Shown: one piece after another, positions 2,715 to 26,400 of the stretch
Layout: each line of letters begins with the position of its first letter
Position numbering within the stretch: the stretch's first letter is position 1
Origin: Escherichia phage BF17
Reading direction: 5' to 3' (one strand)
Sequence record: MW822008.1
DNA length: 64,000 nt
Made by a program: the position numbers and the translations under genes
Notes under the pieces: generated by a model
Told to the model about the DNA's origin: nothing
Databases searched by the model: none
What the model saw: the letters and a program-made list of their open reading frames with translations, nothing else

Positions 2715-2741
2715 GATAATATTAATCTAAAGGAACCTGAC

Positions 2742-3020
2742 ATGAATAACAACATAGATGTAATGTATGCAATGTATAACAAATATACTTGTGGAGCACC
2801 TACATTGGATTATGAATCAACCGAAAAGAACTGGAAATTTATAAAAGAATCAATCGTAGATGTTTTCGGTAGAGATCGAATAAACGCGTGGGCGAGTATA
2901 TGTCGTGATGATAATGGAGAAACATTCTACATCACTTATGTTACTATATATTATGGGAGCGAGTTTATAGTTGGATTACTTGAATGTTTAGTAGGAAAGG
3001 ATTTAGTAGTACTTATATAA
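2742..3020 (+). CDS. hypothetical protein
   Basis: 92-aa ORF with AAGGAA RBS. Confidence 0.4.
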   Translation: MNNNIDVMYAMYNKYTCGAPTLDYESTEKNWKFIKESIVDVFGRDRINAWASICRDDNGETFYITYVTIYYGSEFIVGLLECLVGKDLVVLI

Positions 3021-3038
3021 TATACATGGAGAAGTATT

Positions 3039-3665: not shown

Positions 3666-3759
3666 AATTAAAACAATTAGGACTTGACATTCAAATCCTT
3701 CAATAAATAAGACTATACGAATATAATTCGAATAACCAATTATTTTTGGAGGATTTAAT

Positions 3760-6423: not shown

Positions 6424-6431
6424 AACACTAA

Positions 6432-6456
6432 GGGAACCTTTTGGTTCCCTTTTTTA
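6432..6456 (+). terminator. intrinsic terminator
   Basis: GGGAACC-TTTT-GGTTCCC hairpin + T6 directly after sheath stop. Confidence 0.75.
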
Positions 6457-6506
6457 TTGTTTAAAATTAAATACGTTATGTTATTAATTCAACGATCAGG
6501 AATAAT

Positions 6507-6653
6507 ATGGAAGAAATACTTAAAAAAACATTACAAGATGTAAGTAAAACTGTAGCAACACAGGACGATGCCGTAAAAATCCTTAAAGCTTTTATACAAA
6601 ATTTGGAACATTGTCGGTATAATTCGAGAATACAATGTTTACACAAATGGTAA
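6507..6653 (+). CDS. possible small ORF (48 aa) not in ORF track
   Basis: ATG with AGGA upstream in the 387-bp sheath-tube gap; translation MEEILKKTLQDVSKTVATQDDAVKILKAFIQNLEHCRYNSRIQCLHKW. Confidence 0.25.
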   Translation: MEEILKKTLQDVSKTVATQDDAVKILKAFIQNLEHCRYNSRIQCLHKW

Positions 6654-6810
6654 ATGGTCGGTTGGTGTAAACTATACAGATCATAAACAAGAAAAAAAGT
6701 ACTTGTATTGTGTGAATATAGATTGGTTTCCTGTTGATGAGATACTTCAATAAAAGTGTAAGTAATAGATAAATAATATAAAGATGTCATTCCATAACAG
6801 GAGAATATAA

Positions 6811-7497
6811 ATGGCTACAATGCTTGATCGATATGGCGTTCCGCTCGCTGGCGGTGGTCGTATCTCTATGAAACAACCTAAAGCAAAATATAAATTCCGT
6901 GTTGTTTTCTTTGGCTTCGGTGCTAACGACGATGGCAATATGATTACCCTAGATACCAACACCGTTGGTGCTGTATCTGTATCACATGAAAACGTCACTG
7001 TGCATAGTTATAACAGTTCTGCTCACTATAAAGGTAAGTATACTTGGGATACTATTGATGTGGCTTTCCGTGATTCAGTTGGTAATGCTTCTGCTAAAGC
7101 TCTTTATAACCAAATGCGTAAAGAATTTAACTATTACAGTCAAGAATCTCGTATGACTGATTCCCAGTTCAAATTTGAAATGTGGATTCAAGAGCTAGAT
7201 GGCTCCAATAGTGAAAACACTTCTAACCTTTTTGAAGGTACTTTGAGTACTTGGGTATGTCAAGGCTGCTTTATCGAATCTAGTAACTTTGGTGACTGGG
7301 ATTATTCCTCAAGTGAAGCACAAGTTATTTCTATGACAATTCAACCAGACGGCTGTGCAAAACTCGGTCCTAATGGTGAAGCGTTCGGTGATGAAATTAC
7401 TGGTTTCGGTAACCCATCCACTGCTACCTCTATTAGTGGTGCACAAACCAACATTAGTAGTACTACTCTACCAGATAGTAACTTCTACGAAAATTAA
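6811..7497 (+). CDS. putative tail tube protein
   Basis: Directly downstream of sheath; paralogous to next gene (shared YGVPL...QPKAKYKFRV and DSVGNASAKAL motifs). Confidence 0.55.
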   Translation: MATMLDRYGVPLAGGGRISMKQPKAKYKFRVVFFGFGANDDGNMITLDTNTVGAVSVSHENVTVHSYNSSAHYKGKYTWDTIDVAFRDSVGNASAKALYNQMRKEFNYYSQESRMTDSQFKFEMWIQELDGSNSENTSNLFEGTLSTWVCQGCFIESSNFGDWDYSSSEAQVISMTIQPDGCAKLGPNGEAFGDEITGFGNPSTATSISGAQTNISSTTLPDSNFYEN

Positions 7498-7515
7498 TTT
7501 TTCTTTTAAACGTAA

Positions 7516-7543
7516 GCCTCGAACTAGTTCGGGGCTTTTTTTA
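7516..7543 (+). terminator. intrinsic terminator
   Basis: GCCTCGAAC/GTTCGGGGC hairpin + T7. Confidence 0.6.
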
Positions 7544-7586
7544 TGCTAAATAAAGTATAATACCTTATAAAATAAAAGAGGTTGCT

Positions 7587-8363
7587 ATGGCAAATAACAT
7601 GATTAATAAATATGGCGTTCCTCTACCATCAGGACGTAACCGTTCAATGTTACAACCGAAAGCAAAATACAAATTTCGTGTTATTGTATATAATTTCGGT
7701 ACTGATATAGATGAGCGTGATCACATTGCATTAGATGTTGATAAAGTTGATAGACCTACTGTTACTTTCAGTACTCATAAACTATATCAATTTACAACAA
7801 ATACATCTTACATTGGTAGTCACGATTGGGACCCAATTACTTTAACTATCCGTGATTCAGTTGGTAATGCATCAGCAAAAGCCTTGTCACGACAATTACA
7901 GAAACAATTAGATTTTCAACGAAGAATTACTTCCAGAACTGACCATGATTATGGTTCATATAAGTTCGGAATTGTCATTCAGATGTTGAATGGTCGCAAC
8001 TCTGATGATACACTAGAAGACTTGGGAAGAAACACATTAGTTAATGCAACAACTGCCGCTACCAACAATACTGGATTAGTCAACGCTGTTGATCAGTTCA
8101 TTGGTGGTTCATCATACAATAGTGCTGGCGTTATGGAGTACTTTGTACTAACAGGATGTGTTATACAAAATATATCATATGATTCACTTGACTATAGTTC
8201 AAGTTCTCCTGTTGAAATGGTTATTACAATAAAACCTGATAATTGTATCCAATTCGATAATATCGAAGAAATGTACAGTACTAGAATAAATTCACTTTTA
8301 CCTGAAAACGTAAACCAAGGATTAGATATCATTGACCGTGTTTTCGGTAGCATTGGATTATAA
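7587..8363 (+). CDS. putative tail tube protein (paralogue)
   Basis: Paralogue of 6811-7497; AGAGG RBS. Confidence 0.55.
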   Translation: MANNMINKYGVPLPSGRNRSMLQPKAKYKFRVIVYNFGTDIDERDHIALDVDKVDRPTVTFSTHKLYQFTTNTSYIGSHDWDPITLTIRDSVGNASAKALSRQLQKQLDFQRRITSRTDHDYGSYKFGIVIQMLNGRNSDDTLEDLGRNTLVNATTAATNNTGLVNAVDQFIGGSSYNSAGVMEYFVLTGCVIQNISYDSLDYSSSSPVEMVITIKPDNCIQFDNIEEMYSTRINSLLPENVNQGLDIIDRVFGSIGL

Positions 8364-8374
8364 GGAGATAACCC

Positions 8375-9469
8375 ATGAGTGATTTTTTTGATTCATTTGT
8401 CAGTACTGGAACTAGTATAGTTAATGGTGTTATTGACAATATCAACATCATTAGAGAACCAGCTTTTGAGAATTATAACGCTGCACAACGTGTGTTTGGT
8501 ACAGCAGGTGAAATGGGTTTTTCATTCTATAATTTACCAAAATTTAAGAACAGTTTTATTATCGAATTTGTACTAACCCCGTTCGCAAAGAACTTTATTA
8601 AAACCCAACTCCCAGATACACATACTGATTTTGATGTTAATAATGTATCGTGCTTTGTAAAAGATGTAACACTTCCTAGTTTTTCTTTTAGTGTTGAAAC
8701 CGTAAACCAATACAACAAAAAACGTTTAGTTACTGGTGATATTGTTTATAAACCAAGTAATGTTGTCTTCTACGATACTGTTGATGGTGCTGGATATCTC
8801 CTAATGGACGCATATCGTAAGTTCTACTATGGTGACTTCTTTGACAAGAACCCACAATCTTACCGAAATGACGTACTCAGTACACCAGAAAATTTCAATG
8901 GTTTAGGTGGAAACTGGGGTCGTTCTGTAATGAACAATGGTAACTACGACAACCAGTACTTTTTCAAATCAATTAATATCTATGAAATTGATAATGAAAC
9001 CTATACAGTTCATAACATGATAAATGTATTCATCGAAGATATACAATTAGAAACTAAATCTATGGAAAGTGAAGGTGACCCAGCACTATTATCTTTGACT
9101 ATGCGTTATGAAGCGTGTAACAACTTTGGTCCTGAAGGGTACTTGAGTATTGGTGTCCCTACAATGGAAATTGCACAACTCATCACCGATACTGAAGGTC
9201 TTGGTGTGAGTGGATTCTTTAAGTACTTTGGTGAACTTGATGACAAAACTAAAGGAATTTCGACAGTTGGTAAAATTATCCGAGCAGGAACATCAGTTAG
9301 TGATATAATCAGTAGTGCTGGTGATATCCTTCGTGGTGACATTACTCCTGATACCATCCGAAACATAGGTTCCGCAGTGACAAGAGGTGCAAATGCTATT
9401 GGTTTAGGAAGCATCGTTTCTTCTGCAAGCTCAAAATTCGGATTAGGTAACATATTAGGAGATTTTTAA
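8375..9469 (+). CDS. hypothetical virion protein (possibly tube-initiator-like)
   Basis: 364-aa ORF immediately after tube genes; AAGGAG RBS; no motif recognised. Confidence 0.4.
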   Translation: MSDFFDSFVSTGTSIVNGVIDNINIIREPAFENYNAAQRVFGTAGEMGFSFYNLPKFKNSFIIEFVLTPFAKNFIKTQLPDTHTDFDVNNVSCFVKDVTLPSFSFSVETVNQYNKKRLVTGDIVYKPSNVVFYDTVDGAGYLLMDAYRKFYYGDFFDKNPQSYRNDVLSTPENFNGLGGNWGRSVMNNGNYDNQYFFKSINIYEIDNETYTVHNMINVFIEDIQLETKSMESEGDPALLSLTMRYEACNNFGPEGYLSIGVPTMEIAQLITDTEGLGVSGFFKYFGELDDKTKGISTVGKIIRAGTSVSDIISSAGDILRGDITPDTIRNIGSAVTRGANAIGLGSIVSSASSKFGLGNILGDF

Positions 9470-10486
<1,017 letters not shown>

Positions 10487-10513
10487 CTTAAACGACCTTA
10501 TGGAGTTATTAAA

Positions 10514-11047
10514 ATGAATAGATTACAACAAATCCTAACGGATAAAAAACCAGTTTTTGAATACCGAGTCAAGTTTGCAGTTGAACCTACCAATGAGCAA
10601 CTAAGTAAAGTATCACAACGCCTAATGGATCGTTATGATGCATTTGATATTGGTGCACTAAAGAAAACTATTTTCATGGAAAGACCACTAGATTTTTATG
10701 AATTAGATTGTGGTGAAATTTGGATGTTTGATTTCAAATGCCACCGTGGTGTTCAATCAAACGTACTAATGTATGAAATTGGCAACCTACTAAGTATGAC
10801 TGAAGCTCTAATCCGTGTACGTAGTAAAGATGAACCACGTCAACAAGAAATGACCGAACTCGAAGATGATATTGACTTTGACGATTACGAACCAGTAATT
10901 GGTGTTGATTTTGGCAAACCAGAAGACAGCCATGATTTAGCTGGTGAAGAACGTGCTGTAACCGCAGTTAAAGATGCGATTGAAGCAGTTAAAAGTGACA
11001 ATAAATACTCTCAATATATGAGTGCTGGTTTTGGTAAAAAGGATTGA
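10514..11047 (+). CDS. hypothetical protein
   Basis: 177-aa ORF with GGAG RBS. Confidence 0.45.
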   Translation: MNRLQQILTDKKPVFEYRVKFAVEPTNEQLSKVSQRLMDRYDAFDIGALKKTIFMERPLDFYELDCGEIWMFDFKCHRGVQSNVLMYEIGNLLSMTEALIRVRSKDEPRQQEMTELEDDIDFDDYEPVIGVDFGKPEDSHDLAGEERAVTAVKDAIEAVKSDNKYSQYMSAGFGKKD

Positions 11048-11050
11048 GAC

Positions 11051-11596
11051 ATGAGTATACTTAATGAAATGTTAGACTATAATGATGAAGAGCTAAATGA
11101 AGCTCGTCCATATAGTCGTTCACAAAGTGCAGTAGATAGTGCAAAAGGAAAAGTAAAAGGCTTTTTCGGTAGTGGTCAAGTAGAACAAGGTGCACAAGAA
11201 GTTGGTGCAGAAGCAAACCGTCTTTGGGCTGAATTTAAACGCTATGTTGGTCGCAAATACGGTAAAGCACAGCCATCAGTACCATATGCTGATGTTGCAC
11301 AATTCTTCAAAGGAAATAACCTTGATATAAAACACCTGGGAAATAACAGTCGTCGTACTTTTACTCCTAAAGATGTTGGTTCTGCTCTATTGGCAGCAGC
11401 ACGTGACTTGATGAATGATTATCGTGATGATGATAAAGGTGAAGAACAACAACGTCCTGCACCACAAGCTCAACCTGACAATGCTCCACAACCAGCACCA
11501 CAGGAACAGCCAAAAGCACAAGGTTCTAGTATCCCTGATGCTCTACAAAAATTAAGTCCAGAGCAGCGTGAACAACTTTTGCGTATGCTTTCTTAA
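11051..11596 (+). CDS. hypothetical protein with P/Q/A-rich low-complexity tail
   Basis: 181-aa ORF; AAGGA RBS; PQAQPDNAPQPAPQEQP segment. Confidence 0.45.
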   Translation: MSILNEMLDYNDEELNEARPYSRSQSAVDSAKGKVKGFFGSGQVEQGAQEVGAEANRLWAEFKRYVGRKYGKAQPSVPYADVAQFFKGNNLDIKHLGNNSRRTFTPKDVGSALLAAARDLMNDYRDDDKGEEQQRPAPQAQPDNAPQPAPQEQPKAQGSSIPDALQKLSPEQREQLLRMLS

Positions 11597-11609
11597 GGAG
11601 AATCAACAC

Positions 11610-13121
11610 ATGGATAATTTTTTCAGTACTGAAACTACCACAGTACCTAATGGATATGTATATACTTCTCACACTGGTGGCAAATATGTATTTCTAGAAG
11701 GTTTCTGGTTTAACGACAATAATATGTTAATGGTAGACCCTAAAAAATACCCATCCATGTACGCAAGTGCTCGACAACAGATTGTTGAGCACAATCTATC
11801 TTCTAGTGAATATAAAATTGGTAAAAAATATATTCTTGAAGGTAAAGAGTGTACATTTCTTGGTGAAAATCGTTTCAATTCTAAAGATGGAATTCTACTA
11901 ACTGAAAGTGAAATTATCACTGAACTAATGGCAGATGACCACCGTGTATATAATGTTTCAAAAGAAACTCTACAAAAAGAATGGAACTCCCTAAAATTCT
12001 ATATCCTTCCACCATATGCTGATGATATTTCTATTCCAGCAGGTATGGAAGTTAGTGGATTTAAATTCATCCCTAAAAATCACCGTTTTGTTGATGCAAA
12101 ATCTGGACGTCCAGTTGACCCAGCAATGACACGTAAACTTTCCGATGAAGGTATGCGTATTGCTCGCCAATTAGCACCAAAAAACAAACTAATTCCAATT
12201 AAATCTACATTAGTACAAGGTAATACTCGTTCAGAATGGAATGGTAAAGAATTTTGTGATAATGATGGTAATGTTGTAATTCCAGAACAAAATGCACATG
12301 TAATCTTTAATGCATATCAGCAATTTGTTAAGGCTAACCCTGGTGATTTTCCTTCACTAACTGGTGATCATGAATCAGGTGAACAACGTTTTGGTTCAGG
12401 TGAAAAGCCAGAACAACCTAAACAACCAGTAAAACAGCCAGTATTCGCAACAAAAGAATCCATTAATGAAGCAGATGAAGAGATTGAAGAAACTGAATCT
12501 GTTGTGGTTCCACATGGTTACCGCATTACTTCAAATAAAGGTAAAACATACATTAAACAAAAAAATGCATGGTTTGATGTAGAAACTAAAAAACAACTAA
12601 ATTCTAGTGCTGCAAAAAGTGTTGAACGTGCTGCTCAACGTGATATAATTCGCCATAATAGTTCTGGTGCAATGAAAATCGGAACTAAAGTAAAATCTAA
12701 GAAAGGCACAGAGTATTCTTATATCGGTGGTAACCGCTTTATCAGTGCAGAAGGTAAATTGATTCCAAAATCAACTGCTGATGACATTCTTGCTCGTTAT
12801 GATGCAGAACGTGCTGATAAGAAAGAAGAAGAACCTGAAGAGAAAGTAGATGCTGAAGTATCAAGTACTGATGTAGTTGAGCCAAAAGCTGAACCTACTA
12901 AAGAACCAGAACCTGTTGCAGAGCCAGAACCTGAAGTTCCTGCTGCTGGGGATGAAGTTCAATCATTAGCTTCACGAATTAAAGAATCACCTTACGCTAA
13001 GAAAATTACAGTACTCTTAACGCGTGGTGATGAGGTTTCTCTAATTGCTGCTGACATTTTACTATCTGGTAAAAAGGATGAAACAGTGCAAATTTTAAAA
13101 TCATTAAATAAGAATGATTGA
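11610..13121 (+). CDS. hypothetical protein with internal tandem duplication
   Basis: ATG at 11610 with AAGGAG RBS (track starts 11568); two copies of a ~110-aa module (VPNGYVYTSHTGGKY.. / VPHGYRITSNKGKTY..; YKIGKKY..GENRF / MKIGTKV..GGNRF). Confidence 0.5.
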   Translation: MDNFFSTETTTVPNGYVYTSHTGGKYVFLEGFWFNDNNMLMVDPKKYPSMYASARQQIVEHNLSSSEYKIGKKYILEGKECTFLGENRFNSKDGILLTESEIITELMADDHRVYNVSKETLQKEWNSLKFYILPPYADDISIPAGMEVSGFKFIPKNHRFVDAKSGRPVDPAMTRKLSDEGMRIARQLAPKNKLIPIKSTLVQGNTRSEWNGKEFCDNDGNVVIPEQNAHVIFNAYQQFVKANPGDFPSLTGDHESGEQRFGSGEKPEQPKQPVKQPVFATKESINEADEEIEETESVVVPHGYRITSNKGKTYIKQKNAWFDVETKKQLNSSAAKSVERAAQRDIIRHNSSGAMKIGTKVKSKKGTEYSYIGGNRFISAEGKLIPKSTADDILARYDAERADKKEEEPEEKVDAEVSSTDVVEPKAEPTKEPEPVAEPEPEVPAAGDEVQSLASRIKESPYAKKITVLLTRGDEVSLIAADILLSGKKDETVQILKSLNKND

Positions 13122-13143
13122 TAACTAAAAGGATTTATTTAAA

Positions 13144-14133
13144 ATGGCTAAAAAAATTAATGAAGCACAAGTTAAAATCGATATCGCAGGTCTAGAATCT
13201 GAAGATCTAGAAACACTATCTCGTATGCTTGCATTAGCTGGTCAAGCAGAGCGTCAAGCTTCTCCTGTTGCTGCTCCAGTTCCTTCTATGGGGTCTATGA
13301 CCCCTTCTCTACCACCAATCGCTCCACTCGACATGGATTCCATTGGTGCTGGTGCTGAAGAAGAAGTTGGTGGTACAATGGATGGTGCGATTGATGCACC
13401 AGTTGAAGACCCATTGGAAGTAGCTGCTGACTCACTATCTGCTGAAGCTGGTGATTTTGGTGGTGATTCTGAAGAAGTAAGTATGGATGCAGAGTTCGAA
13501 GAGCCTGGTGTTGCAGATGAAGAAGAGTTTTCTTTAGATCTTTCCGGTCAACCTCAACTAGAATCAGTTGAAGAAGAGGAAGAAGAAGAAATCATCGAAG
13601 AAGAATTCGATTTCAGTCGTATGCTATCTCTAGCTGGGCTTCAAGACGAACCAGAAGATGAATATTCAGTAGAAGGTAACCCAGATACTGAAGTTAAAGT
13701 TGAAGAAAACACTTTCCTACCAGACCTAACCATCTCTGAAGATGAAGAACAAGGTGACAGTACTGATTTTGGACCTTACAACACTGAAGCTGATGCCGTT
13801 CGTGACGGTCAAGCTAAAACTAATGGTGTAGAAGGTGACCACTTTGTTGTTATTACCAAGGGTAACAAGTTCTACTGGAGACGTGTCGTTGATGAAGATG
13901 TTGACAATCGTCCTGAACCAGAGTACTATGACAATGACGGTAACGAGAACCGTGTTCACAAATTTGAACCTAAGTTTCCAGGTACTGCTCTAGGTGACAA
14001 CCCACTCAATGTTAATGAGAGTGATGAGTCCGTGGAAGGTAACGAAGAACTAGAAGATGAAAGCGATGAAGAAGTCGAAGACATTTTCGAAAGTCTCCAG
14101 AAGAAATATCAACAATTTCTAGGGGACAAATAA
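13144..14133 (+). CDS. highly acidic protein (D/E-rich)
   Basis: 329 aa with long E/D runs (EEEEEEEIIEEEFDF); AAAGGA RBS. Confidence 0.5.
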   Translation: MAKKINEAQVKIDIAGLESEDLETLSRMLALAGQAERQASPVAAPVPSMGSMTPSLPPIAPLDMDSIGAGAEEEVGGTMDGAIDAPVEDPLEVAADSLSAEAGDFGGDSEEVSMDAEFEEPGVADEEEFSLDLSGQPQLESVEEEEEEEIIEEEFDFSRMLSLAGLQDEPEDEYSVEGNPDTEVKVEENTFLPDLTISEDEEQGDSTDFGPYNTEADAVRDGQAKTNGVEGDHFVVITKGNKFYWRRVVDEDVDNRPEPEYYDNDGNENRVHKFEPKFPGTALGDNPLNVNESDESVEGNEELEDESDEEVEDIFESLQKKYQQFLGDK

Positions 14134-14134
14134 G

Positions 14135-14527
14135 ATGGGATATAATTATCGTGAATTGGTTGAAGCATTAGATGAAATCACTTCTAGTGAAGAATCTACT
14201 GAAGAAGAAAGTTTTGCAGTTGAGACTCCTTCTGATGCTGTTGCCACCGATTTACTTAAAGATATCACCGAATGCCTTATCCACATTGTGGATAAGGTTA
14301 AATCAGGTGAAGATCAAAAAGAAATCGTAGAAAAGCTTCAAAAAGCGTGTGACATTTTATCGGATGTTCGATATAATGATGAAAGTACTGAAGAAGTTGA
14401 TGAATCCACTGATTGCTGCTTCGGAACCAAAGATATGGGTCCGAAAATTGGTAAAGATGGTGTCCAAGACTATAAAGTTAAAGATGCTCCTTCATATGCA
14501 GCAAGACAGGGTTTCGTGGGGATGTAA
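14135..14527 (+). CDS. acidic hypothetical protein
   Basis: 130-aa ORF, E/D-rich, GGGGA RBS, tightly packed after previous gene. Confidence 0.45.
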   Translation: MGYNYRELVEALDEITSSEESTEEESFAVETPSDAVATDLLKDITECLIHIVDKVKSGEDQKEIVEKLQKACDILSDVRYNDESTEEVDESTDCCFGTKDMGPKIGKDGVQDYKVKDAPSYAARQGFVGM

Positions 14528-14530
14528 TTT

Positions 14531-14908
14531 ATGATTCCTGAACCACACAACAGTACTGAATTTCAAAACGATGTACTTTTAAAAGTTAGAGAAGTACATG
14601 GATCAGACGCTGAATTAACAGACCGTATGCTTCTGATGTCAATTTTTGAAAATTTCAGAACTGGCGGTGGTTTAAGACTTAGCAAGTTTGGATATACAAT
14701 TTGTAAAGAAAACATTCTTTACGAATTTACAAAAATCCCCTTGCAAAGAGAGTTCAAAAGTTCTATAATCTTTACATCGCTTGATAGGATATGTACTTCA
14801 CCCTACTATGTAGAAGGGCAGTACATATACCTCTCGGACGCAATGATAGTTACAGAGTTAACATTGTGTGGTGATGATTTTAGAATGTTATTTTCGATGC
14901 ACATGTAG
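14531..14908 (+). CDS. hypothetical protein
   Basis: 125-aa ORF with GGGGA RBS. Confidence 0.4.
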   Translation: MIPEPHNSTEFQNDVLLKVREVHGSDAELTDRMLLMSIFENFRTGGGLRLSKFGYTICKENILYEFTKIPLQREFKSSIIFTSLDRICTSPYYVEGQYIYLSDAMIVTELTLCGDDFRMLFSMHM

Positions 14909-14933
14909 CTTCGAAAATAAAGAAAAAAAGATG

Positions 14934-14961
14934 TTGACAACGCCGAATGATGTGTTATAAT
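14934..14961 (+). promoter_or_regulatory. sigma70-type promoter P1 (TTGACA-N16-TGnTATAAT)
   Basis: TTGACA 14934-14939, TATAAT 14956-14961 with TG extended -10. Confidence 0.7.
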
Positions 14962-15025
14962 GACCACCACGAAGCAAGTTTTCAAAATCACAAGATGTGA
15001 GATTGAAAAAGAAATAAAAAAGTTG

Positions 15026-15053
15026 TTGACAAGCCTGAACGATGTGATATAAT
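15026..15053 (+). promoter_or_regulatory. sigma70-type promoter P2, tandem duplicate of P1
   Basis: TTGACA 15026-15031, TATAAT 15048-15053; ~40-bp block GTTGACAA...GATGTG.TATAATGACCAC repeated 92 bp apart. Confidence 0.7.
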
Positions 15054-15115
15054 GACCACATCAAGACGGCAAAGAGAAATGCCTTTTTAAATACATGGAT
15101 GATTCATGAAGTAAC

Positions 15116-15158
15116 AAAGGAACTGATAAGTTAAAAATTCTTTTAACACAGTTCCTTT
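15116..15158 (+). promoter_or_regulatory. long stem-loop in 5' leader of the AAA+ gene
   Basis: AAAGGAACTG ... CAGTTCCTTT 10-bp inverted repeat with nested GTTAAAA/TTTTAAC stem. Confidence 0.45.
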
Positions 15159-15184
15159 ACTTTTGCCCACGGATTGGCTATAAT
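15156..15184 (+). promoter_or_regulatory. possible third promoter (TTTACT-N17-TATAAT)
   Basis: TATAAT 15179-15184 with weak -35 at 15156-15161. Confidence 0.35.
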
Positions 15185-15224
15185 AGAAACCTAAACGATT
15201 TTATCCAACAAAAGGAAAATATAC

Positions 15225-16553
15225 ATGTCTACTCAAAACAACGATATCCTGAACGTAAAACTGACTCCTAAGAAAGCTAAAGAAGCAATGGCACTGGCTG
15301 ACATGATTCAAGATAGCCTGATGATTTGGGGTAGCCCTGGTATCGGTAAATCTGCTATCGCACGTCAATACGCTGATGAGAACTACCCACTGCGTAAAGA
15401 TAACGTGGCAAAAATTGAGTTCATGAAACAACAAATCGAAGCTGATACTGAAAATGCTGATCAACTTCGCCGTGAACTGGCAGCGTTTGAAGCCAAACTA
15501 ATCGACCAAGACACTAACTTTATCGATTTCCGTTTGTCTCAGATTGAACCAAGTGACCTTCGCGGTATTCCAGTTCCAGAGAAAGTGTTCCTTGATATGG
15601 ATGGTAAGCAACTGATTGAATCTGAACTGGCTAGTGCACAAGATTACATCGCTGAAACAGCAGTTGTGTGGGCAGCACCTAAAGTACTGAAACTGTCTCC
15701 AGATTGGAAAGGTGTTATTCTGTTTGACGAAATCAACTCTGCAATGCCGATTGTACAGGCAGCGTCTTATCAGCTAATCCTCGACCGTTGTGTTGGTGAG
15801 ATGAAGCTACCTAAGACTGCACTGATTCTCGCAGCAGGTAACCGTGAAACTGATGGCGGTGTAACGTTCTCTCTAGCTACACCACTGCGTGACCGTATGA
15901 CCCACATCGAAATGATTCCTTATCATCAAGATTGGATTAACGATTATGCGATTGGTAAGCGTTTGAACCCAGCAACTGTAGCGTTCATCAACAACACTGG
16001 TGCTAAACACTTCAACACCCTTAGCCCACAAGATCCTTCTCACTGTGGTGGTACTTCTCCACGTTCATGGGAAGCAGTAGCACGCTACGAAGATCTGAAG
16101 AAAGTTAAGAACATTGATAAAGAAGTGTTCCGTGCGATGATTGCAGGTCGTGTTGGTGAAGGCGTAGCAACTGAATACATCGAGTATGTTGATAACGTAG
16201 CTAAACTACCAGATACCATGTCCATCCTACAGGGTGAGATTAAAGAGATTGATGCTTCGCTTGATATTTCCGCGAACTACTTCATCACTCTGAATCTGGT
16301 TTACAAAATTATCGACCTCTACAATGAGAAGCAAGAACAACGTCTACCAGTGGAAGATTGGGGTAAGCTGTGCAACAACTTCATCACCTTCCTAGACCAT
16401 AACTTCTCTGCAACTCAAGCAGAACTGGCAGTACTGGCGATTCGTACCATCACGCTTCATAAAGTAGCGATTACGATTAAAGATGTACCAGCGTTTAAAG
16501 ACTTCGTTATGAAGTACTCTGACCTAGTACGTAAAGCACGCTCTCTTGGTTAA
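15225..16553 (+). CDS. MoxR-type AAA+ ATPase (AAA_5 / CbbQ-NorQ-CobS-like)
   Basis: Walker A GSPGIGKS, Walker B VILFDEINSA, AAGN and TPLRDRM motifs; single AAA module; AAGGA RBS. Confidence 0.75.
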   Translation: MSTQNNDILNVKLTPKKAKEAMALADMIQDSLMIWGSPGIGKSAIARQYADENYPLRKDNVAKIEFMKQQIEADTENADQLRRELAAFEAKLIDQDTNFIDFRLSQIEPSDLRGIPVPEKVFLDMDGKQLIESELASAQDYIAETAVVWAAPKVLKLSPDWKGVILFDEINSAMPIVQAASYQLILDRCVGEMKLPKTALILAAGNRETDGGVTFSLATPLRDRMTHIEMIPYHQDWINDYAIGKRLNPATVAFINNTGAKHFNTLSPQDPSHCGGTSPRSWEAVARYEDLKKVKNIDKEVFRAMIAGRVGEGVATEYIEYVDNVAKLPDTMSILQGEIKEIDASLDISANYFITLNLVYKIIDLYNEKQEQRLPVEDWGKLCNNFITFLDHNFSATQAELAVLAIRTITLHKVAITIKDVPAFKDFVMKYSDLVRKARSLG

Positions 16554-16575
16554 TAATTAAAAAGAGTGTTGACAA

Positions 16576-16606
16576 GAAGGATACCACATGGTATCCTTCT
16601 TTTATC
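16576..16606 (+). terminator. intrinsic terminator after AAA+ gene
   Basis: Perfect palindrome GAAGGATACCA-CATG-TGGTATCCTTC + TTTT; preceded by TTGACA at 16569. Confidence 0.65.
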
Positions 16607-16628
16607 TTAACTAAACGAGGAAATACAA

Positions 16629-18038
16629 ATGTCAGATAAACGTTTCAGTGATGTTACTCCGGCTCTCCAGAAAGAATGTCAAGATCGTCTGATCTTAGCT
16701 CGCACATCTTTAATGCTAACATTCCCATTCTTTGGTGTACTGGCTTCTCGTCTGCGTCCAGTTGCAAACAATACATGGTGTCGTACTTTGGCAGTAGATG
16801 GTAAGCATTTATTCTACAACGTAGAATTCATCATGGGTATTCAGGACCAATCCAAAAAGACCGCATACGAAGAAGCAATTCGTGAGAAACATCCTGAAGT
16901 AACTGAAGAACAACTTAAAGAAATGACAGAAGGTTTGACTGATGAAAACCTGATTGCAGTTATCTGTCATGAGATTCTTCACTGTGCATATGACCACTTC
17001 TTGCGTCGTGGTATGCGTGACCCGCAGCGTTATAACCGTGCTGCTGACTATGCAATTAACCAGATTCTTGTTCGTGATAAAATTGGTAAAATCCAAAGCC
17101 AATGGCTGTACGATAAAAAGTACGATGGCATGACTGCTGAAGAGATTTATAACATTCTCGAAGAAGAAGATAAGCAGGATCAAGACGGAGAAGGTGAAGG
17201 TAACCCACAGGCTGGTAGTGGTGAGGGCGAAGGTAAATCACGTGGTACTTTTGGCGATATCAAAGATGGTAAAGGCAAAGGTACAACAATTGACCAGCAT
17301 GACGTTCCACAAGAAGGTCAAGAGGGTGGTTCAAGTGAGAAACAAAAACGTGATTATATGGATGATTTCAAAACAGCAATGATGAATGCTGCTCGTGCAG
17401 GTGGTACTCCTGCTGAAATCGCACGTATGATTAACAACTTCAAAGAACCAAAGATCGACTGGCGTTCTAAACTTCACCGCACGCTACGTAGCTGGTTGAA
17501 GTCTGACGCAACTTATCAAAGTCCTAATCGTCGTTCATGGGGTGCTGGTTTTGGTAGTACTGGTTCATTCTACGGGAATCCAATCTTCCCTGGCATGAAA
17601 CCTGATGATGATATTGATATTGCAATTGCACTAGATGCATCCGGTTCTATCTCTGAAGATATGCTCCGTGATTTCATCAGTGAAGTACTGGGTATCACTA
17701 AGCAGTTTAAACAATTTAAAATCCGTATCATGACGTTCGATACTGAAGTTTATACTGTAAAAGATTACAAAACTGGTGAAGAGAGTAAGATTCTTGAATA
17801 TCCAGTGAAAGGTGGTGGTGGTACTGACTTTGAAGCAGTATGGGTTCATATGAAGCATGACAACTATAAGCCAAAACAGCTTATTATGTTTACTGATGGT
17901 GAGCCGTGGCAGTCATGGGGCGATCCTGATTACTGTAAGACACTGTTTGTTATCCACAGTAATCCTAACAAACAAGCACCATTTGGTGAAACTGTACACT
18001 ACGAATATGAAGCTGACAAAAAGCGTCAACGTAGCTAA
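16629..18038 (+). CDS. vWA-domain protein with N-terminal HExxH metallopeptidase-like domain (DUF2201-like), partner of the AAA+ ATPase
   Basis: HEILH motif; MIDAS residues DASGS ... GGGGTDFE ... FTDGEP; GAGGA RBS. Confidence 0.75.
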   Translation: MSDKRFSDVTPALQKECQDRLILARTSLMLTFPFFGVLASRLRPVANNTWCRTLAVDGKHLFYNVEFIMGIQDQSKKTAYEEAIREKHPEVTEEQLKEMTEGLTDENLIAVICHEILHCAYDHFLRRGMRDPQRYNRAADYAINQILVRDKIGKIQSQWLYDKKYDGMTAEEIYNILEEEDKQDQDGEGEGNPQAGSGEGEGKSRGTFGDIKDGKGKGTTIDQHDVPQEGQEGGSSEKQKRDYMDDFKTAMMNAARAGGTPAEIARMINNFKEPKIDWRSKLHRTLRSWLKSDATYQSPNRRSWGAGFGSTGSFYGNPIFPGMKPDDDIDIAIALDASGSISEDMLRDFISEVLGITKQFKQFKIRIMTFDTEVYTVKDYKTGEESKILEYPVKGGGGTDFEAVWVHMKHDNYKPKQLIMFTDGEPWQSWGDPDYCKTLFVIHSNPNKQAPFGETVHYEYEADKKRQRS

Positions 18039-18050
18039 GTACTAAATAAT

Positions 18051-18081
18051 GAGAACGGAAAATTCCGTTCTCTACTTTTTT
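18051..18081 (+). terminator. intrinsic terminator after vWA gene
   Basis: GAGAACGGAA-AA-TTCCGTTCTC hairpin + T6. Confidence 0.75.
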
Positions 18082-18147
18082 CAGCGGGACAGCTTGGAAA
18101 AAGGTGATATAATTATATTTGTAACAACATACATGGAGAGTATTAAA

Positions 18148-18378
18148 ATGGAACAAGAACCAGAAAAAATTCAACTAACACTAATCGACCTAATCAACGC
18201 TGCTAAAATCATGGAAGCTGCTGTGGCTCGTAATTCATTTAAAGTCGAAGAACTTGTTGATGTTGCTCCAGTCGTATCTAAGTTTGTTGAGTTTGCTAAC
18301 TCTGCACTCGAAGATATCAAAGCACAAGAAGAAGCTGAAGCTGCACAAGCTGCTGCTGAACAAAATAAAGGAGAATAA
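18148..18378 (+). CDS. small acidic hypothetical protein
   Basis: Track ORF 18049 overlaps the terminator; ATG at 18148 has GGAGAG RBS. Confidence 0.4.
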   Translation: MEQEPEKIQLTLIDLINAAKIMEAAVARNSFKVEELVDVAPVVSKFVEFANSALEDIKAQEEAEAAQAAAEQNKGE

Positions 18379-18380
18379 TA

Positions 18381-19034
18381 ATGGCTATTCGTCACGTTGG
18401 TGTAGTACGTAATACAGGTTCACGTGTATTTGTGGTATGGCGTTCACTCCCTGATGATCCAGAACATTGTCTCATTGTTTATCGCGATTCACTTCCTGAA
18501 GCATATGCTCAATCTGTTGCAGATTTAGTAATGAATCAAGGTCAATCGAATGTAGATTTGTGGGAAGTTATGCATAAGATTGGTCATCTAGACGGTCGCA
18601 AAATGCTAGATGTGCTTCATAATCTACAACATTTGCGTCGTGCACGTACTTGTGATATTGATATGCATGTTGGTGGCAACAGTAAGATTTCTCTTGATGT
18701 TCTAAACACCGCAATCAATGATAATGATGCTAAAAAACATGAAGATGGTAAAGTTAAAGAATACAACCCATTCAAGCCACAAGAAGTTGATACTTCTGTT
18801 GAAGAAGCTACCATTGTTGAGCAACTACTTAAAGATGCACAACGTTATGAGCAGTTGGCTAAAGAGCACTTTGAACGTGCTTACAACTTAGAACCATCTC
18901 TACGTCCACAAGTTCAAGCAACACCTGTAGCACCTGATAGCAAAACTTTCTATATTGAAATCCCAGAAGGAATTTCACAAACCAAAGCAATTGAGAAAGT
19001 TAAACAGGCATTTGCTGAACGTAAAGCAAAATAA
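18381..19034 (+). CDS. hypothetical protein
   Basis: 217-aa ORF with AAAGGAG RBS. Confidence 0.45.
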   Translation: MAIRHVGVVRNTGSRVFVVWRSLPDDPEHCLIVYRDSLPEAYAQSVADLVMNQGQSNVDLWEVMHKIGHLDGRKMLDVLHNLQHLRRARTCDIDMHVGGNSKISLDVLNTAINDNDAKKHEDGKVKEYNPFKPQEVDTSVEEATIVEQLLKDAQRYEQLAKEHFERAYNLEPSLRPQVQATPVAPDSKTFYIEIPEGISQTKAIEKVKQAFAERKAK

Positions 19035-19039
19035 TATAA

Positions 19040-19633
19040 ATGAATAAAATAGAATTAGATGAAGCAATCAATGGTTTATCTAATGTATGTTTCAGTGGCG
19101 GGGCAGCAGGTGCTGACCGCCTTTTTTCTATCTATGCAAAAGACAATGGATTTGAAGTAATAAATTTTTCATTCAAGGGTCACCAAAGCAGTGTAGATGA
19201 AAATACTATATTAGAAATTCCATCCAATATCCTTTGTGATAGTTCAATATTAAAACAATTAAACATTGCATGTTACTCTTTACGCCGTAAAGTTCCTAAG
19301 CCTGGTTCGTATGTATATAACTTACTTGCAAGGAATAGTTACCAGATACTTAATACTAAAAGAGTATATTGTATTGCAAATATTACATCACCCACGCAAG
19401 TTTCAGGTGGAACTGCATGGGCAGTACAGATGTATATGGATTCAGTTGACAATCCAGAAATATATTGTTATGATATGAACACTCGCTCTGTATTTTATTA
19501 TGATACAGTACTGAAAGAGTTTACTGAAACATTCTCAATACCAGCACCACACGGTAACTGGACTGGGATTGGTTCACGTAATGCTACACAAAAACACATG
19601 GAACACTTTATTACATTTTTCAAGGACGTATAA
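19040..19633 (+). CDS. hypothetical protein, possibly SLOG/DprA-like Rossmann fold
   Basis: N-terminal CFSGGAAGADRLFSIYA resembles the G-rich nucleotide-binding loop of DprA/LOG-type proteins; stop overlaps thyA start (ATGA). Confidence 0.3.
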   Translation: MNKIELDEAINGLSNVCFSGGAAGADRLFSIYAKDNGFEVINFSFKGHQSSVDENTILEIPSNILCDSSILKQLNIACYSLRRKVPKPGSYVYNLLARNSYQILNTKRVYCIANITSPTQVSGGTAWAVQMYMDSVDNPEIYCYDMNTRSVFYYDTVLKEFTETFSIPAPHGNWTGIGSRNATQKHMEHFITFFKDV

Positions 19634-20562
19634 TGAAACAACTACAAGAACTATATCAAAGAATTCTGGATCAAGGTGTCGAAAGCGTTGATCGTACTGG
19701 TGTTGGCACTATCAAGCTAATCGGACAACAAATGCGTTTTGACCTAAAAGAAGGTTTCCCAGCAGTAACTACTAAACGTTTAGCTTGGAAAGCAATGACT
19801 TCAGAATTGTTATGGTTTATTGAAGGTTCTCACGATGAGCGTCGTCTGTGTGAAATTTTACACGGGACACGTGATGTAGAAAAGAAAACAATTTGGACAG
19901 ACAACTACCTTAATCAAGGTGTAAGCCTTGGGTATTCTGATGGTGAGCTTGGCCCAGTTTATGGTAAACAATGGCGTGAATGGGAAGATTATAAATTCAG
20001 TTCCAGTACTGAAGAAATTCAAGAACTAAAAGATAAAGGGTATAAAGTTATTGATTATACTGGTTCACATGGTGTTATTATGCGTCGTGTAACTGACCAG
20101 CTAAAACAAGTTATTGAAGGTATCAATACTGATCCATACGGTCGTCGTCACATTCTAAGTGCATGGAACGTTGGTGAGCTTGATGCTATGACTTTGCCAC
20201 CCTGTCATAGCTTTGTGCAGTTTTGTGTTGTACAGGGTAAACTAAGTTGTATTCTTCATCAACGTAGTGCTGATCTATTCCTTGGTGTGCCATTTAATAT
20301 TAGTAGTTACTCACTACTAACTCATATGATTGCACAAATTACAGGGTTAGATGTTGGTGAATTTATTTGGAATGGTGGCGACTGCCATATCTATCAAAAC
20401 CATATTGAACAAGTAAAAGAGCAACTCCAACGTGAACCACGTACATTACCAGAATTATGGTTAGATCCTACTATTACTGATATTGAAGATTTCACTATGG
20501 ATTCTTTCAAATTAGTTAATTACGATCCAATGCCATCAATCAAAGCACCAATGGCTGTATAA
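19633..20562 (+). CDS. thyA: thymidylate synthase (ThyA-type)
   Basis: ELLWFIEGS, GPVYGKQWR, catalytic PPCHSF, QRSADLFLGVPFNISSY, GDCHIYQNH; Asn retained in PFN so dUMP-type rather than dCMP hydroxymethylase. Confidence 0.9.
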   Translation: MKQLQELYQRILDQGVESVDRTGVGTIKLIGQQMRFDLKEGFPAVTTKRLAWKAMTSELLWFIEGSHDERRLCEILHGTRDVEKKTIWTDNYLNQGVSLGYSDGELGPVYGKQWREWEDYKFSSSTEEIQELKDKGYKVIDYTGSHGVIMRRVTDQLKQVIEGINTDPYGRRHILSAWNVGELDAMTLPPCHSFVQFCVVQGKLSCILHQRSADLFLGVPFNISSYSLLTHMIAQITGLDVGEFIWNGGDCHIYQNHIEQVKEQLQREPRTLPELWLDPTITDIEDFTMDSFKLVNYDPMPSIKAPMAV

Positions 20563-23495: not shown

Positions 23496-26400
23496 TTAAG
23501 CAGTACGTTGTGCAATGAACAAATCAGTAACTGAACTTACACCATCATAAATTACTTGGTAAATGGTCACGCTACCAGCAGTTTTGTTTAGTTCACCATC
23601 AACAACAGCATAAGTACCATCAGTTGTAAAGTTTCTGTTACCAGTTGTATCTTGTTTAACATAGATGTATACTGATGCAGCTTTACCACCACCAATTAGG
23701 CCAGTAATTGGAGCCAACGTGGTATCTTGGTCTAGAGTGATGAAGTATACGTTACTTGTACCATCTGGAGTCCATGTTCCGGTTGGAGCAATTACTGATG
23801 ATGTAACTTGAGTTGGGATTACATCATACTTTTTGGTAGTTACTGTTGTAGTAGTTAAGTTAGCATTAGTAGTGGTTAGTTCACCAGTTACTGTTACTGC
23901 CTTATCAAACACAGCATTTTCTTTAAATGATGAAGTTGCATTAACGGTTAGAACGTCAGCCGCTGCGTCACCTAATGTTACGTTACCATTCGCAGTTAGT
24001 GCTCCTGTTACTGCTAGTGTTCCACCTACTGTTGCGTTACCAGTAACGGATGCACTTGCAAGTGTAGCCAAACCTGATGTTGTAATTGTAGAAACGGTTG
24101 TTGCACCGAATCCAGCAGTACCAGTTGCAGAGATATTACCACCTACTGTTAGGTTACCAGCAGTGATACCAACAGTACCAGTGATGTTTGCACCACTTGA
24201 CATAGTTACTGCACCACCAAATGAACCAGTAGTAGTAACTTCTAAAGTATTACCTTTAAGCAATCCAGTTGCAGTGATAGAAGTACCAGCAGTAATTGAA
24301 GTGTTAGCAGTAATTGAAGTGCCAGCCGCTACGTTGTTAGTTGCAGTCAAAGACTTAACAGCTACATCGGAATCTGCTTGGTTCAATTGTGCATTTAGTA
24401 CACCAGTAACAGTAAAGTCACCGTTGTTTACAACGTTACCATTAACGATTAGGTTGTTGTTTTGTGAACCGACTTCACCAATTGTTGCAGAACTTGAAAT
24501 AATTGCCGCACCAGCAGTAATATTACCAGCAGAAGATAAAGAATCGGATGCTATTACTGCAAACGGTTCTAGTGTTTGTCCACCAACATCGATATCTGCG
24601 TTAATACCACCTTCAACACGTAGTTTACCAGCAATATAAGTGTCTGGCATAATCTGTACAGTTTCAGGCTGCTCACCTAATGGTGTACCAACTGTTAGAG
24701 TTGCACCAGTTTTAACAGAACCTAGTGTTGTTTGACCAACTACACCTAGTGTACCACCAACGGTTGCGTTGTTAGTTACTGCTAGACCAGTTCCTGAACC
24801 ATTCAAGGTTGCAGATGGAGCAGTTACTGCACCAGAAGTTAGTGTTCCACCAATTGTTGCTAAACCAGTTACACCTAATGTTCCACCAAGGGTAGTATTA
24901 CCTGTCGCATTTAATGTTTCAGATAGAGTTAGTGTTTTAGCAGAGATATCTGCACCAGTTAGATCTAAGCTACCAGGAGTTAGTGTTCCAACTACAGTTA
25001 CATCGTTACCAAATGTCGCAGCACCAGTAACACCAAGAGTAGTACTGAAAGAGCCACTTGTTGCAGATACACCAGAAGTTACGATAGAACCAAGTGATGC
25101 TTGACCAGTTACTCCTAATGTACCACCAATAGTTGCATTATTAGTTACTGCTAGTGCAGTACCAGTACCGCTTAGGGTTGCCGATGGAGCAGTTACTTCA
25201 CCAGTTACACCTAATGTTCCACCTACTGTTGTGTTACCACCAAAGGAAGCTGCACCATCAGAGTGAATAGTTTCAGATACTGACAAACTCTTAGCTGTAA
25301 TGTCAGCAGTTGTTAGGTCTAAACCACCTGCTGGTGTGAATACACCTTCAACAGTTACATCGTTGTCAAATGTAGCTGCACCAGTAACATCCAATGTAGA
25401 ACTAAATGTACCAGTACTACCAGATACAGCACCGGAAACCAATGAACCAACAGTTGTTACACCAGTAATATTCGCAAGACCAGTTACAGTCAATGGACCT
25501 GAAGATAATGAGCCAGTTACACCTAATGTTCCACCAACGGTCGCATTGTTAGTAACACCCAAACTACCAGCATTCACTGTGCCAGATGCAGTAACATCAG
25601 TAGTACTTACACCACCACTTAGTGTGCTTAGGCCAGTTGCAGTGATGGTTGAAGCAGTTGCAAGACTATTAGCAGAAATATCTGCACCAGTTAGGTCAAT
25701 ACCACCTTGTGGAACCAATTCACCTTCAACTGTTAGTTTCTGAACAGTACTATCACCAGATACATTTAAGGATGCAGCACTTAGTGCAGCTACTGTACTT
25801 TGACCAGTTACATTTAAAGTGGTGTTTACTGTAGTGTTGTTTAAAGTTGTATCACCGGATACTAATATAGCGTTGGTATTGATACCACCAGCATCAACTT
25901 GAATACCACCAGTGCTTACAGTTACTTTCTTGCCGATATTTACAATATCAGTTAGGGTAGTTGCACCAGTTACTGAAGCAGTACCTGCGACTGAAAGGTT
26001 TCCAGATACGGATGGGCTACCAGTTACAACACCAGTTGTTAGTACTAGGTTACCACCAACGGTAGTATTTCCAGAACTAGCAAGGGTAATTGCTGAAACA
26101 TTGGAAGAACTTAAATCAATTGAACCATTAACAACTAGGTCACCACCAATTGTAGCACCTTCTGTAGTACTTAGGGATTTAGAACTAATATCGGTAGTAC
26201 TTAGGTCGATAGAACCAGGAGTAACAGTGCCAGATACGGTCAAATCACCAGTAATAGAAGCACTTTTCGCAATGTCAATTGTATCATTAACAGAACTAAT
26301 ATTATTAACATTTAATATACCATTAATGTTTGCATTATTGTCAACACGTAAACCTTCACCAACTCCATTTAGTACAATACTTGTAGCTGTTACTTCAGTA

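Follow-up and report, generated by a model that had tools for sequence, protein, structure and literature searches.

Consensus σ70-type promoters and a conserved structured leader associated with AAA genes in a Rak2-like jumbo coliphage

The locus and its genomic setting

The stretch of Escherichia phage BF17 DNA considered here (64,000 nt of sequence record MW822008.1; hereafter, the window) carries three closely similar promoter-like sites on its + strand. Two of them, P1 and P2, lie in tandem ahead of a gene pair that encodes an AAA ATPase and a protein with a von Willebrand factor A-like (vWA) domain; the third, at 44326, lies ahead of a gene for a Clp/Hsp100-like ATPase. An initial annotation made from the sequence described the three as a phage-specific class of early promoter that would drive strong expression of these genes. 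The coordinates of the sites, the genes and the features between them are collected in Table 1.

Table 1. Promoters, leader elements and genes discussed in the text (positions in the window)
Feature	Position	Strand	Description
Duplication unit 1	14909-15000	+	A-rich UP-like tract 14911-14933, P1, initially transcribed region
Promoter P1 (predicted)	14934-14961	+	TTGACA 14934-14939; 16-nt spacer ending TGTGT; TATAAT 14956-14961; 12/12 hexamer matches, TG present
Duplication unit 2	15001-15092	+	A-rich tract 15004-15025, P2, initially transcribed region
Promoter P2 (predicted)	15026-15053	+	TTGACA 15026-15031; 16-nt spacer ending TGTGA; TATAAT 15048-15053
First GGA motif	15097-15099	+	A(U/A/C)GGA, 5' of hairpin 1; in 14 of 15 distinct leaders
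Hairpin 1, terminator type	15116-15164	+	Arms AAAGGAACTG 15116-15125 and CAGTTCCTTT 15149-15158; inner stem 15131-15136/15141-15146
P3, weaker σ70-like site	15156-15184	+	TTTACT-N17-TATAAT, 10/12 matches; overlaps the terminator tail
Hairpin 2	15166-15177	+	4-5 bp stem, (C/U/A)GGA loop: CCCA-CGGA-TTGG
Unit served by P1/P2 (predicted)	15225-18038	+	AAA gene, intergenic hairpin 16574-16601, DUF2201 gene; terminator 18051-18072
AAA ATPase, N4 gp24 type	15225-16553	+	Pfam AAA; phrog_1297
DUF2201 protein, N4 gp25 type	16629-18038	+	Pfam DUF2201_N (putative metallopeptidase domain) and VWA-like DUF2201
Family sibling of the three sites	18086-18113	+	GGGACA-N16-TATAAT (GGTGATATAAT), just past the strong terminator 18051-18072, before ORF 18148-18378
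Clp/Hsp100-like gene promoter (predicted)	44326-44353	+	TTGACA 44326-44331; 16-nt spacer ending TGTGA; TATAAT 44348-44353
Class-I Clp/Hsp100 ATPase, two-AAA	44392-46680	+	AAA, AAA_lid_9, AAA_2 and ClpB_D2-small domains
Extended -10 site without -35 (probable promoter)	2704-2715	+	Just after terminator 2667-2697, before ORF 2742-3020 and a dNMP-kinase-like gene

In megablast comparisons, positions 13000-19000 of the window are 98.4-99.3% identical to nine Escherichia jumbo phages, including WPEC5, Ecwhy_1, fEgEco12, EC.P1, and CMSTMSU, and ~84% identical to the 121Q/PBECO4/G17 group (Asteriusvirus). These matches identify the source phage as a Rak2-like jumbo coliphage of Asteriusvirus, with 99% identity to fEgEco12; its relatives are Rak2-like myoviruses of 350-385 kb. 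An N4-like identity was considered in view of a 3333-aa open reading frame (ORF) and the gp24/gp25-like pair, and was ruled out because BLAST puts the window in Asteriusvirus. The window maps to ~123.7-187.7 kb of fEgEco12 in unchanged orientation, which places P1/P2 and the Clp-gene promoter at ~138.6 and 168.0 kb, within late modules. The + strand late module 5' of P1 encodes neck, sheath, tube, head-closure, and structural proteins; 3' of P2 come the AAA and vWA genes, three small genes, and then thymidylate synthase (ThyA). The Clp gene is a single + strand gene amid minus-strand tail and baseplate genes.

Domain matches agree with the AAA/MoxR, vWA and ClpA-homologue labels that these genes were first given, and the N4 gp24 homology of the AAA ATPase has been noted by annotators of Klebsiella phages. 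The DUF2201 gene is labelled 'HNH endonuclease' or 'Zn-dependent hydrolase' in several GenBank records, the former apparently because phrog_1314 bears that name.

Three perfect σ70-type promoter sites

At all three sites both hexamers match the σ70 consensus perfectly (6/6 + 6/6), a G directly follows TATAAT, and a TGn extended -10 element (TGTTATAAT or TGATATAAT) is present with another TG farther upstream; transcription is predicted to start at ~14966-14969 (P1), ~15058-15060 (P2), and ~44358-44361 (the Clp-gene promoter). The pattern TTGACA-N11-TGTGWTATAATG is found three times in the window even when up to two mismatches are allowed, each time on the + strand, against an expectation of 0.07, and none of 100 shuffles reaches three. 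The TTGACA...TATAAT architecture claimed in the initial annotation is borne out by these counts, and the GACCAC it placed after both tandem copies is present in the sequence. Its formula, TTGACA-N16-TGTG..., is loose in notation, as N16 is the spacer between the hexamers and already contains TGTGW. With full hexamers and an extended -10, P1, P2, and the 44326 site are very probably functional σ70-type promoters of the host polymerase.

Long A-tracts occupy the UP-element position of P1 and P2, while the region upstream of 44326 is AT-rich and has no A-tract. The proximal UP subsite consensus of Estrem and colleagues reportedly reads AAAAAARNR, a form that AAAAAAAGA, at -46 to -38 of P1, fits. 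The Clp gene has a plain leader of ~32 nt, with a Shine-Dalgarno sequence GGAG at 44383-44386 and an ATG at 44392, and expression of the gene should track the promoter without an intervening control.

P1 and P2 arose by tandem duplication

The two ~92-bp units that contain P1 and P2 align with a score of 23, compared with -7.4 ± 4.8 (maximum 11) for composition shuffles, and their similarity spans the A-tract, the spacer, and ~18 nt beyond the -10. P1 and P2 are thus a true tandem duplication, as had been proposed, and not two independent consensus matches. A single copy of the promoter is present in RaK2 and in relatives farther removed, and the RaK2 spacer is nearest to that of P2. The ~92-bp duplication would have occurred in the E. 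coli Asteriusvirus lineage.

Between P1 and P2 (14975-15003, + strand), G17 preserves the blocks AAGTTTTCAA and CACAAGATGTGAGnTTGAAAAA almost unchanged despite divergence of the neighbouring bases; they could be an upstream part of the P2 UP region or a factor site. Tandem promoters are not confined to the AAA-vWA operon, since in fEgEco12 the gp32-like ssb gene is also preceded by two promoters of the family described below, at 221715 and 221791 (locus L011), 76 bp apart.

Conservation and orthologues of the promoters

The window and G17 agree exactly in the two -35 hexamers, in the (A/C)GATGTG block, and in the P2 -10, as well as in GATGTGATATAATG of P2, whereas the spacers differ in their 5' halves (acgccgaat in the window versus agatagaat in G17, and agcctgaac versus agttgaaac). 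Hexamers and block kept beside a diverged half-spacer form the conservation pattern of a promoter. The P1 -35 is also kept in 121Q; the P1 -10 reads TACAAT in 121Q and G17 and TATAAT in UE-S1.

Across related loci from IMG/VR, exactly one TGnTATAAT lies within 300 nt 5' of the AAA gene (18/18), in each case at the equivalent place just past the stop codon of an upstream 125-aa ORF. The -35 of this promoter varies: TTGACA is present twice in the window and 121Q and once in RaK2, GGGACA is found in loci L017-L019 and L030, and (G/A)TGAAAC(G/A) in Eneladusvirus, CBB, GAP32, and metagenomic relatives, the regions upstream of the AAA gene in CBB and GAP32 reading (G/A)TGAAACG...TGGTATAAT.

The Clp-gene promoter behaves in the same way, with a TGTG(A/C)TATAAT block that is unchanged while the -35 varies. 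The window has ccttgTTGACA...TGTGATATAATg and 121Q has ccttgTAGACA...TGTGATATAATg; the -35 is GAGACA in EJP2 and GGGACA in 7t3, both followed by TGTGATATAAT, and the element is TGGAACG in GAP32 (TGGAACG...TGTGCTATAAT) and likewise in CBB. Since orthologous sites carry TAGACA, GAGACA, GGGACA or TGGAACG, the TT of the -35 is a detail of this lineage.

The 44326 promoter region aligns with CBB 145764-145891, a segment that includes the published promoter Porf_235 (145,858-145,886; TGGAACGACCTAAAAAAATGTGCTATAAT), an entry in the CBB 'TGAAACG' promoter table (PMC5259590). The authors tied this class ('Promoter 1', divergent RpoD-like) to DNA-synthesis genes, reported it in GAP32 too, and found predicted RpoD-like promoters of CBB to be preceded by UP-like elements (PMC5259590). 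No TGAAAC-N14-20-TA[TC]AAT sequence occurs on the + strand of fEgEco12. The window sites are thus homologues of the TGAAACG class in their position and -10 block, and would work alike, but their upstream motif sets them outside it. For the distant relative PA5oct, rifampicin sensitivity and σ70-like motifs at start sites mapped by RNA-seq have been reported.

That the repeats are chance matches, or elements of another sort such as repeats bound by a protein or scars of recombination, is very improbable. AT-rich phage DNA does give many promoter-like matches, which in a bulk scan do not exceed those in shuffles. Against such an origin stand the excess of the full pattern over expectation, the location of all three sites on the coding strand in intergenic DNA ahead of genes, the hexamer-specific conservation, and a promoter at the orthologous position in every relative examined.

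Promoter families in fEgEco12

The whole-genome motif scan that the initial annotation suggested as a check was run on fEgEco12. Perfect TTGACA-N16-18-TATAAT sites are strongly enriched, with 31 on the + strand and 0 on the minus strand against ~1.0 expected from first-order Markov simulations, and the spacer is 16 nt in 20 of the 31. TGTGWTATAAT is found 16 times, 15 of them on the + strand (~1.6 expected by our own base-frequency estimate), and its combination with TTGACA is confined to P1, P2, and the 44326 site. The scan did not, on the other hand, set these three apart as a class of their own. Among 75 TGnTATAAT sites on the + strand, 24 have a GACA that ends 16 nt before TATAAT, compared with 0-3 at other spacings from 10 to 23, and the three sites fall in the same register.

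The -35 of this xxGACA family is GGGACA (8 sites), GAGACA (7), TGGACA, TAGACA or AGGACA (2 each), or TTGACA, and the family consensus is ..g.GACAa.....aa....gTGaTATAAT. Its members precede the gp32 ssb gene (the tandem pair), primase, exonucleases, an RNase H-like nuclease, nudix, ThyA-cluster genes, and others. The window itself has four GACA-N13-TGnTATAAT sites against 0.01 expected. The family sibling at 18086 keeps its GGGACA and TGATATAAT in G17, where the spacer has drifted. Judged by motif register and orthology, on which all class assignments here are based, P1, P2, and the 44326 site are the consensus-most members of an xxGACA-N16-TGnTATAAT family.

The block at 2704-2715, which the initial annotation recorded as a further -10 copy, is present but lies one position downstream of the 2703-2714 given there. 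The block, ATGTGATATAATG, and its leader are conserved in 121Q, and the xxGACA family probably includes it as an extended -10 promoter that needs no -35. A fifth exact copy, TGTGTTATAATG, not previously listed, lies at 43927-43938 (+); it is probably not a promoter, being inside the minus-strand ORF 42787-44295 with a -35 of TTCCCA at a spacer of 18, off the family register.

A different family is found before tiny ORFs of the 21-kb terminal repeat of fEgEco12 and at 290-327 kb (loci L007, L012, and L013). These early promoters read aaaaA....TTGACAaa..atttcAGTACTG-TATAAT-agTTtacAT, and none has TGTGW; AGTACTG directly precedes 15 of 383 TATAAT hexamers on the + strand. In its fuller form, TTGACA-N9-AGTACTG-TATAAT-nnTTACATCAA, the family frequently shows AGTACT a second time, immediately before the -35, and the palindromic, ScaI-like AGTACT sites that flank the -35 are a possible operator for early shut-off. 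A third flavour, gggTTGACTtcggtcagccctttttgcTATAAT, at 315184, 318778, 321821, 326443, and 327026 of fEgEco12 (L013), has a GC-rich hairpin across the -35 and spacer and may act as combined terminator and promoter. By their stereotyped motifs, the genome has at least two families of host-type promoter, and the three window sites belong to the replication/accessory one: they have TGTGW, not AGTACTG, and lie within late modules.

These families bear on the proposal that TTGACA-N16-TGTGWTATAATG defines a distinct, phage-specific early class from which the AAA-vWA pair and the Clp gene are strongly expressed at the immediate-early stage, a proposal that we regard as quite unlikely. The proposal draws on the perfect hexamers and extended -10 of the three sites, on A-tracts at P1 and P2 that resemble those of early promoters, on the restriction of TTGACA with TGTGW-TATAAT to three sites in 354 kb, and on the fact that a perfect consensus requires no phage factor. 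The stereotyped early signature of this genome is, however, the AGTACTG-TATAAT-nnTTACATCAA of the terminal repeat and the 290-327 kb region; the -35 is not constant among orthologues; three members, two of them duplicates, are too few for a class; and a terminator-type hairpin stands between P2 and the AAA gene. A separate class is not borne out, given the 31 perfect TTGACA sites, the fit to the xxGACA register and the orthologous -35 variation; nor is early timing established, as the sites are inside the late structural region and their family precedes replication and nucleotide genes.

The variable -35 raises another possibility, that the xxGACA family, including the three sites, is read mainly by a phage σ70-family factor or an appropriated σ70 as a middle class, with the match to the host consensus incidental or reflecting dual recognition. 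A conserved GACA with two variable bases before it departs from the TTG preference of σ70, GGGACA is shared by clades whose spacers have drifted apart, the genes that follow family sites include those for gp32, primase, exonucleases, and nudix proteins, related genera have TGAAACG instead, and sigma factors are annotated in both fEgEco12 and CBB. We consider this unlikely: extended -10 promoters generally work with σ70 holoenzyme (Eσ70) regardless of the -35, no link leads from a phage sigma factor to the motif, and the three sites would be excellent σ70 promoters anyway.

A conserved, structured leader between P2 and the AAA gene

The leader from P2 to the AAA gene is 170 nt long, and its structured part occupies 15093-15182 (+). 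From ~15095 to the ATG it differs from G17 at a handful of positions in ~130 nt, within a surrounding 6 kb that is ~84% identical, and it is recognisable in RaK2 at 72%. All relatives recovered amount to 15 distinct leaders, and each of the 15 has the same order of elements: promoter, GGA motif, hairpin 1 with a T-rich tail, hairpin 2, ~35 nt, Shine-Dalgarno sequence, and ATG.

Hairpin 1 combines a 10-bp outer and a 6-bp inner stem with the tail TTTACTTTT (15156-15164), the first three T of which are shared with the 3' arm. It is independently predicted by RNAalifold, with compensatory changes at three pairs; 94.8% of its cells are paired, and it coincides with an ARNOLD terminator in the G17 annotation. 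In RaK2 each arm has lost one base, and the pairing is kept (GGACTG/CAGTCC, as against GGAACTG/CAGTTCC). The stem of hairpin 2 covaries among genera (for example, GCTTA/TAAGC, CTCAA/TTGAG, CCAAA/TTTGG, and TCAGA/TCTGA), with 86.7% of cells paired and compensatory changes at two pairs. For both helices together, 92.3% of cells are paired, compared with 18-54% when the 3' partners are slid, and five pairs are compensated; none of 500 shuffles attains the observed covariation score of 0.311 (shuffle value 0.108). Folded from the P2 start, the leader has a minimum free energy (MFE) of -34.3 kcal/mol and an MFE z-score of -3.0.

A covariance model of the leader (R1) scores 61 bits at this locus only, which rules out a repeated element. 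Ordinary intergenic terminators account for the next matches (28-33 bits), which places hairpin 1 in the phage's usual type of terminator; it is the leader as a whole that is unique. No Rfam family reaches its gathering score anywhere in the window, and near the locus only chance-level matches (E 0.6-8) are found. A leader peptide from the short ORF ATGGATGATTCATGA (15096-15110) was considered and rejected, as its ATG is lost in 121Q.

These features alter what can be expected of P1 and P2. Strong expression of the MoxR-vWA pair, as predicted in the initial annotation, does not follow when transcripts from P2 must pass a conserved terminator-type hairpin to reach the start codon; it is conditional on read-through. 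Elsewhere, a stop codon, hairpin/T-tract, Shine-Dalgarno sequence, and ATG recur in succession with no room for a promoter, for example at 374-397 (+) of the window, before the ATG at 415, and at 19556-19583 of locus L009. A hairpin/T-tract placed directly before a Shine-Dalgarno sequence in this way implies that terminators of the phage are leaky and that read-through is routine.

Alternatively, the main products of P1 and P2 might be short non-coding RNAs of the leader, terminated at hairpin 1 and ~105 nt (P2) or ~195 nt (P1) long, with the AAA-vWA mRNA coming from P3 or from late read-through from upstream. The constant order of promoter, hairpin/T-tract, and gene in every distinct leader is consistent with such RNAs, as are the resemblance of hairpin 1 to ordinary terminators of the phage and conservation of the leader beyond that of coding sequence. 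P3, just past the stem, is identical in 121Q and nearly so in RaK2 (TTTACT-N17-TATCAT), but it is absent outside Asteriusvirus and RaK2; in distant genera the RNA would be only ~50 nt, the stretch from start site to hairpin 1 is poorly conserved, an Rfam match is lacking, and the phage's terminators are evidently leaky. We judge this reading improbable.

Other features of the window

A 12-bp hairpin (AAGAAGGATACC...GGTATCCTTCTT) with a T-rich tail lies between the AAA and vWA genes (16569-16601, +) and is overlapped by TTGACA-N17-TATCCT; it may be internal punctuation of the operon. The T4-type late promoter motif TATAAATA is not found near any of the three sites, and a late promoter of that type was rejected for them. 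The window has one copy, at 61247-61254 on the minus strand, against 6.55 ± 2.6 expected; it lies between two minus-strand baseplate genes, and avoidance would fit a functional late signal. Three very large ORFs are present on the minus strand, at 46714-56715, 23496-29216, and 29366-34282 (3333, 1906, and 1638 aa), which the fEgEco12 annotation describes as hypothetical protein and long-tail-fibre proximal subunits.

A model for promoter use and leader function

Considering the architecture, enrichment, conservation, positional orthology, hairpin covariation, and duplication described above, we think it probable that the three sites are host-polymerase promoters and members of the xxGACA family, that P1 and P2 are products of duplication, and that AAA-vWA output depends on read-through of the leader. 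Host RNA polymerase would use the sites by way of their perfect -35 and -10, 16-nt spacer, and TRTGn-type extended -10. The xxGACA family would be the Asteriusvirus counterpart of the TGAAACG/divergent RpoD-like class of CBB and GAP32 and would serve genes for replication, nucleotide metabolism, and accessory functions that lie dispersed in late modules. In the present lineage the first two bases of the -35 would have become TT, so that unmodified Eσ70 should recognise the three sites as soon as infection begins; the change may bear on timing or on strength only.

Transcripts from P1 and P2 would first cross the conserved leader, with its terminator-type hairpin and U-rich tail followed by a GGA-loop hairpin ~40 nt before the Shine-Dalgarno sequence. 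Hairpin 1 would attenuate them, leaving expression of the AAA and vWA genes to read-through, possibly with a contribution from P3; it is the conserved terminator-type leader that makes their output dependent on read-through or attenuation. Binding of a protein to the leader could add translational control.

Several points weigh against this model. It is odd for an mRNA promoter to stand before a good terminator. Promoter-like matches across the window as a whole do not exceed those in its shuffles (72 against 65.7 in positions 1-20000), and the signal resides only in the top-scoring sites. The conserved GGGACA and GAGACA elements are unlike the preference of σ70 region 4 and may reflect a phage sigma factor or co-factor; two sigma factors are annotated in fEgEco12. 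The sole genome scanned completely is fEgEco12 (non-redundant length 353.7 kb), and a literature search found no promoter analysis or transcriptome for Asteriusvirus; a paper on phage N1M2 deals with a phiKZ/OBP-like phage and has no bearing here. With no promoter paper found for the genus, both promoter families (xxGACA and AGTACTG) and the conserved leader also appear to be undescribed there.

A linked proposal, that a phage σ70-family factor with altered -35 specificity reads the xxGACA family and that the leader is an undescribed cis-regulatory RNA, seems rather unlikely to hold as a whole. If its first part were true, the TTGACA sites would have dual specificity and would keep Clp/Hsp100 and AAA-vWA on through the host-sigma and phage-sigma phases; if its second part were true, an attenuator or CsrA-type translational switch would gate the AAA-vWA module.

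The three sites provide high-confidence start points for the annotation of transcription units in an almost unstudied group of jumbo coliphages, and could act as compact strong promoter parts. The drift of the -35 between genera (TGAAACG, GGGACA/GAGACA, TTGACA), together with the structured leader, offers testable handles on temporal control in Rak2-like phages.

Comparison with known systems

Perfect TTGACA and TATAAT hexamers, a TG at -15/-14, and a spacer within 17 ± 1 are common to the three sites and the extended -10 σ70 promoters of E. coli, and the A-tract of P1 and P2, at about -38 to -58, is a candidate counterpart of the UP element of such promoters. We presume a likeness to rrnB P1 as well, in tandem promoters, a 16-nt spacer, an UP element, and a C-rich CCACCAC after the -10. 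The window sites differ from E. coli σ70 promoters in that their spacer is 16 nt where 17 is optimal, they are phage-borne and part of a phage-wide stereotyped family, and the Clp-gene promoter has no A-tract.

The early promoters of the terminal repeat share with the window sites TTGACA, a 16-nt spacer, TATAAT, and an A-rich tract that ends ~2-3 nt before the -35, and the P2 start region (CACATCAAG) resembles that of the early class (TTACATCAA). The early promoters have AGTACTG where the window sites have TGTGW, and they cluster at the genome ends.

The leader resembles promoter-proximal attenuators and the delayed-early read-through of T4 in having a stem-loop and U-rich tail inside the 5' leader, between promoter and gene. 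It differs from known attenuators in the GGA-loop hairpin that follows and in having no recognised alternative antiterminator structure or regulator. Leaders bound by CsrA/RsmA carry a GGA in the loop of a short hairpin and a second GGA at the Shine-Dalgarno sequence, 10-63 nt away. Here the loop GGA (15171-15173) and the Shine-Dalgarno GGA (15214-15216) form a conserved pattern, although GGA motifs are common; hairpin and Shine-Dalgarno sequence look like a CsrA/RsmA-type site, a resemblance at the level of sequence.

With the CBB/GAP32 TGAAACG class the window promoters have in common the TGnTATAAT block, a similar distance to the upstream element, and an association with DNA-metabolism genes; the upstream element is TGAAACG in that class and xxGACA here (TTGACA at the three sites). 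The two promoter families and the leader are variations on known themes, and as promoters the three sites are useful but unsurprising.

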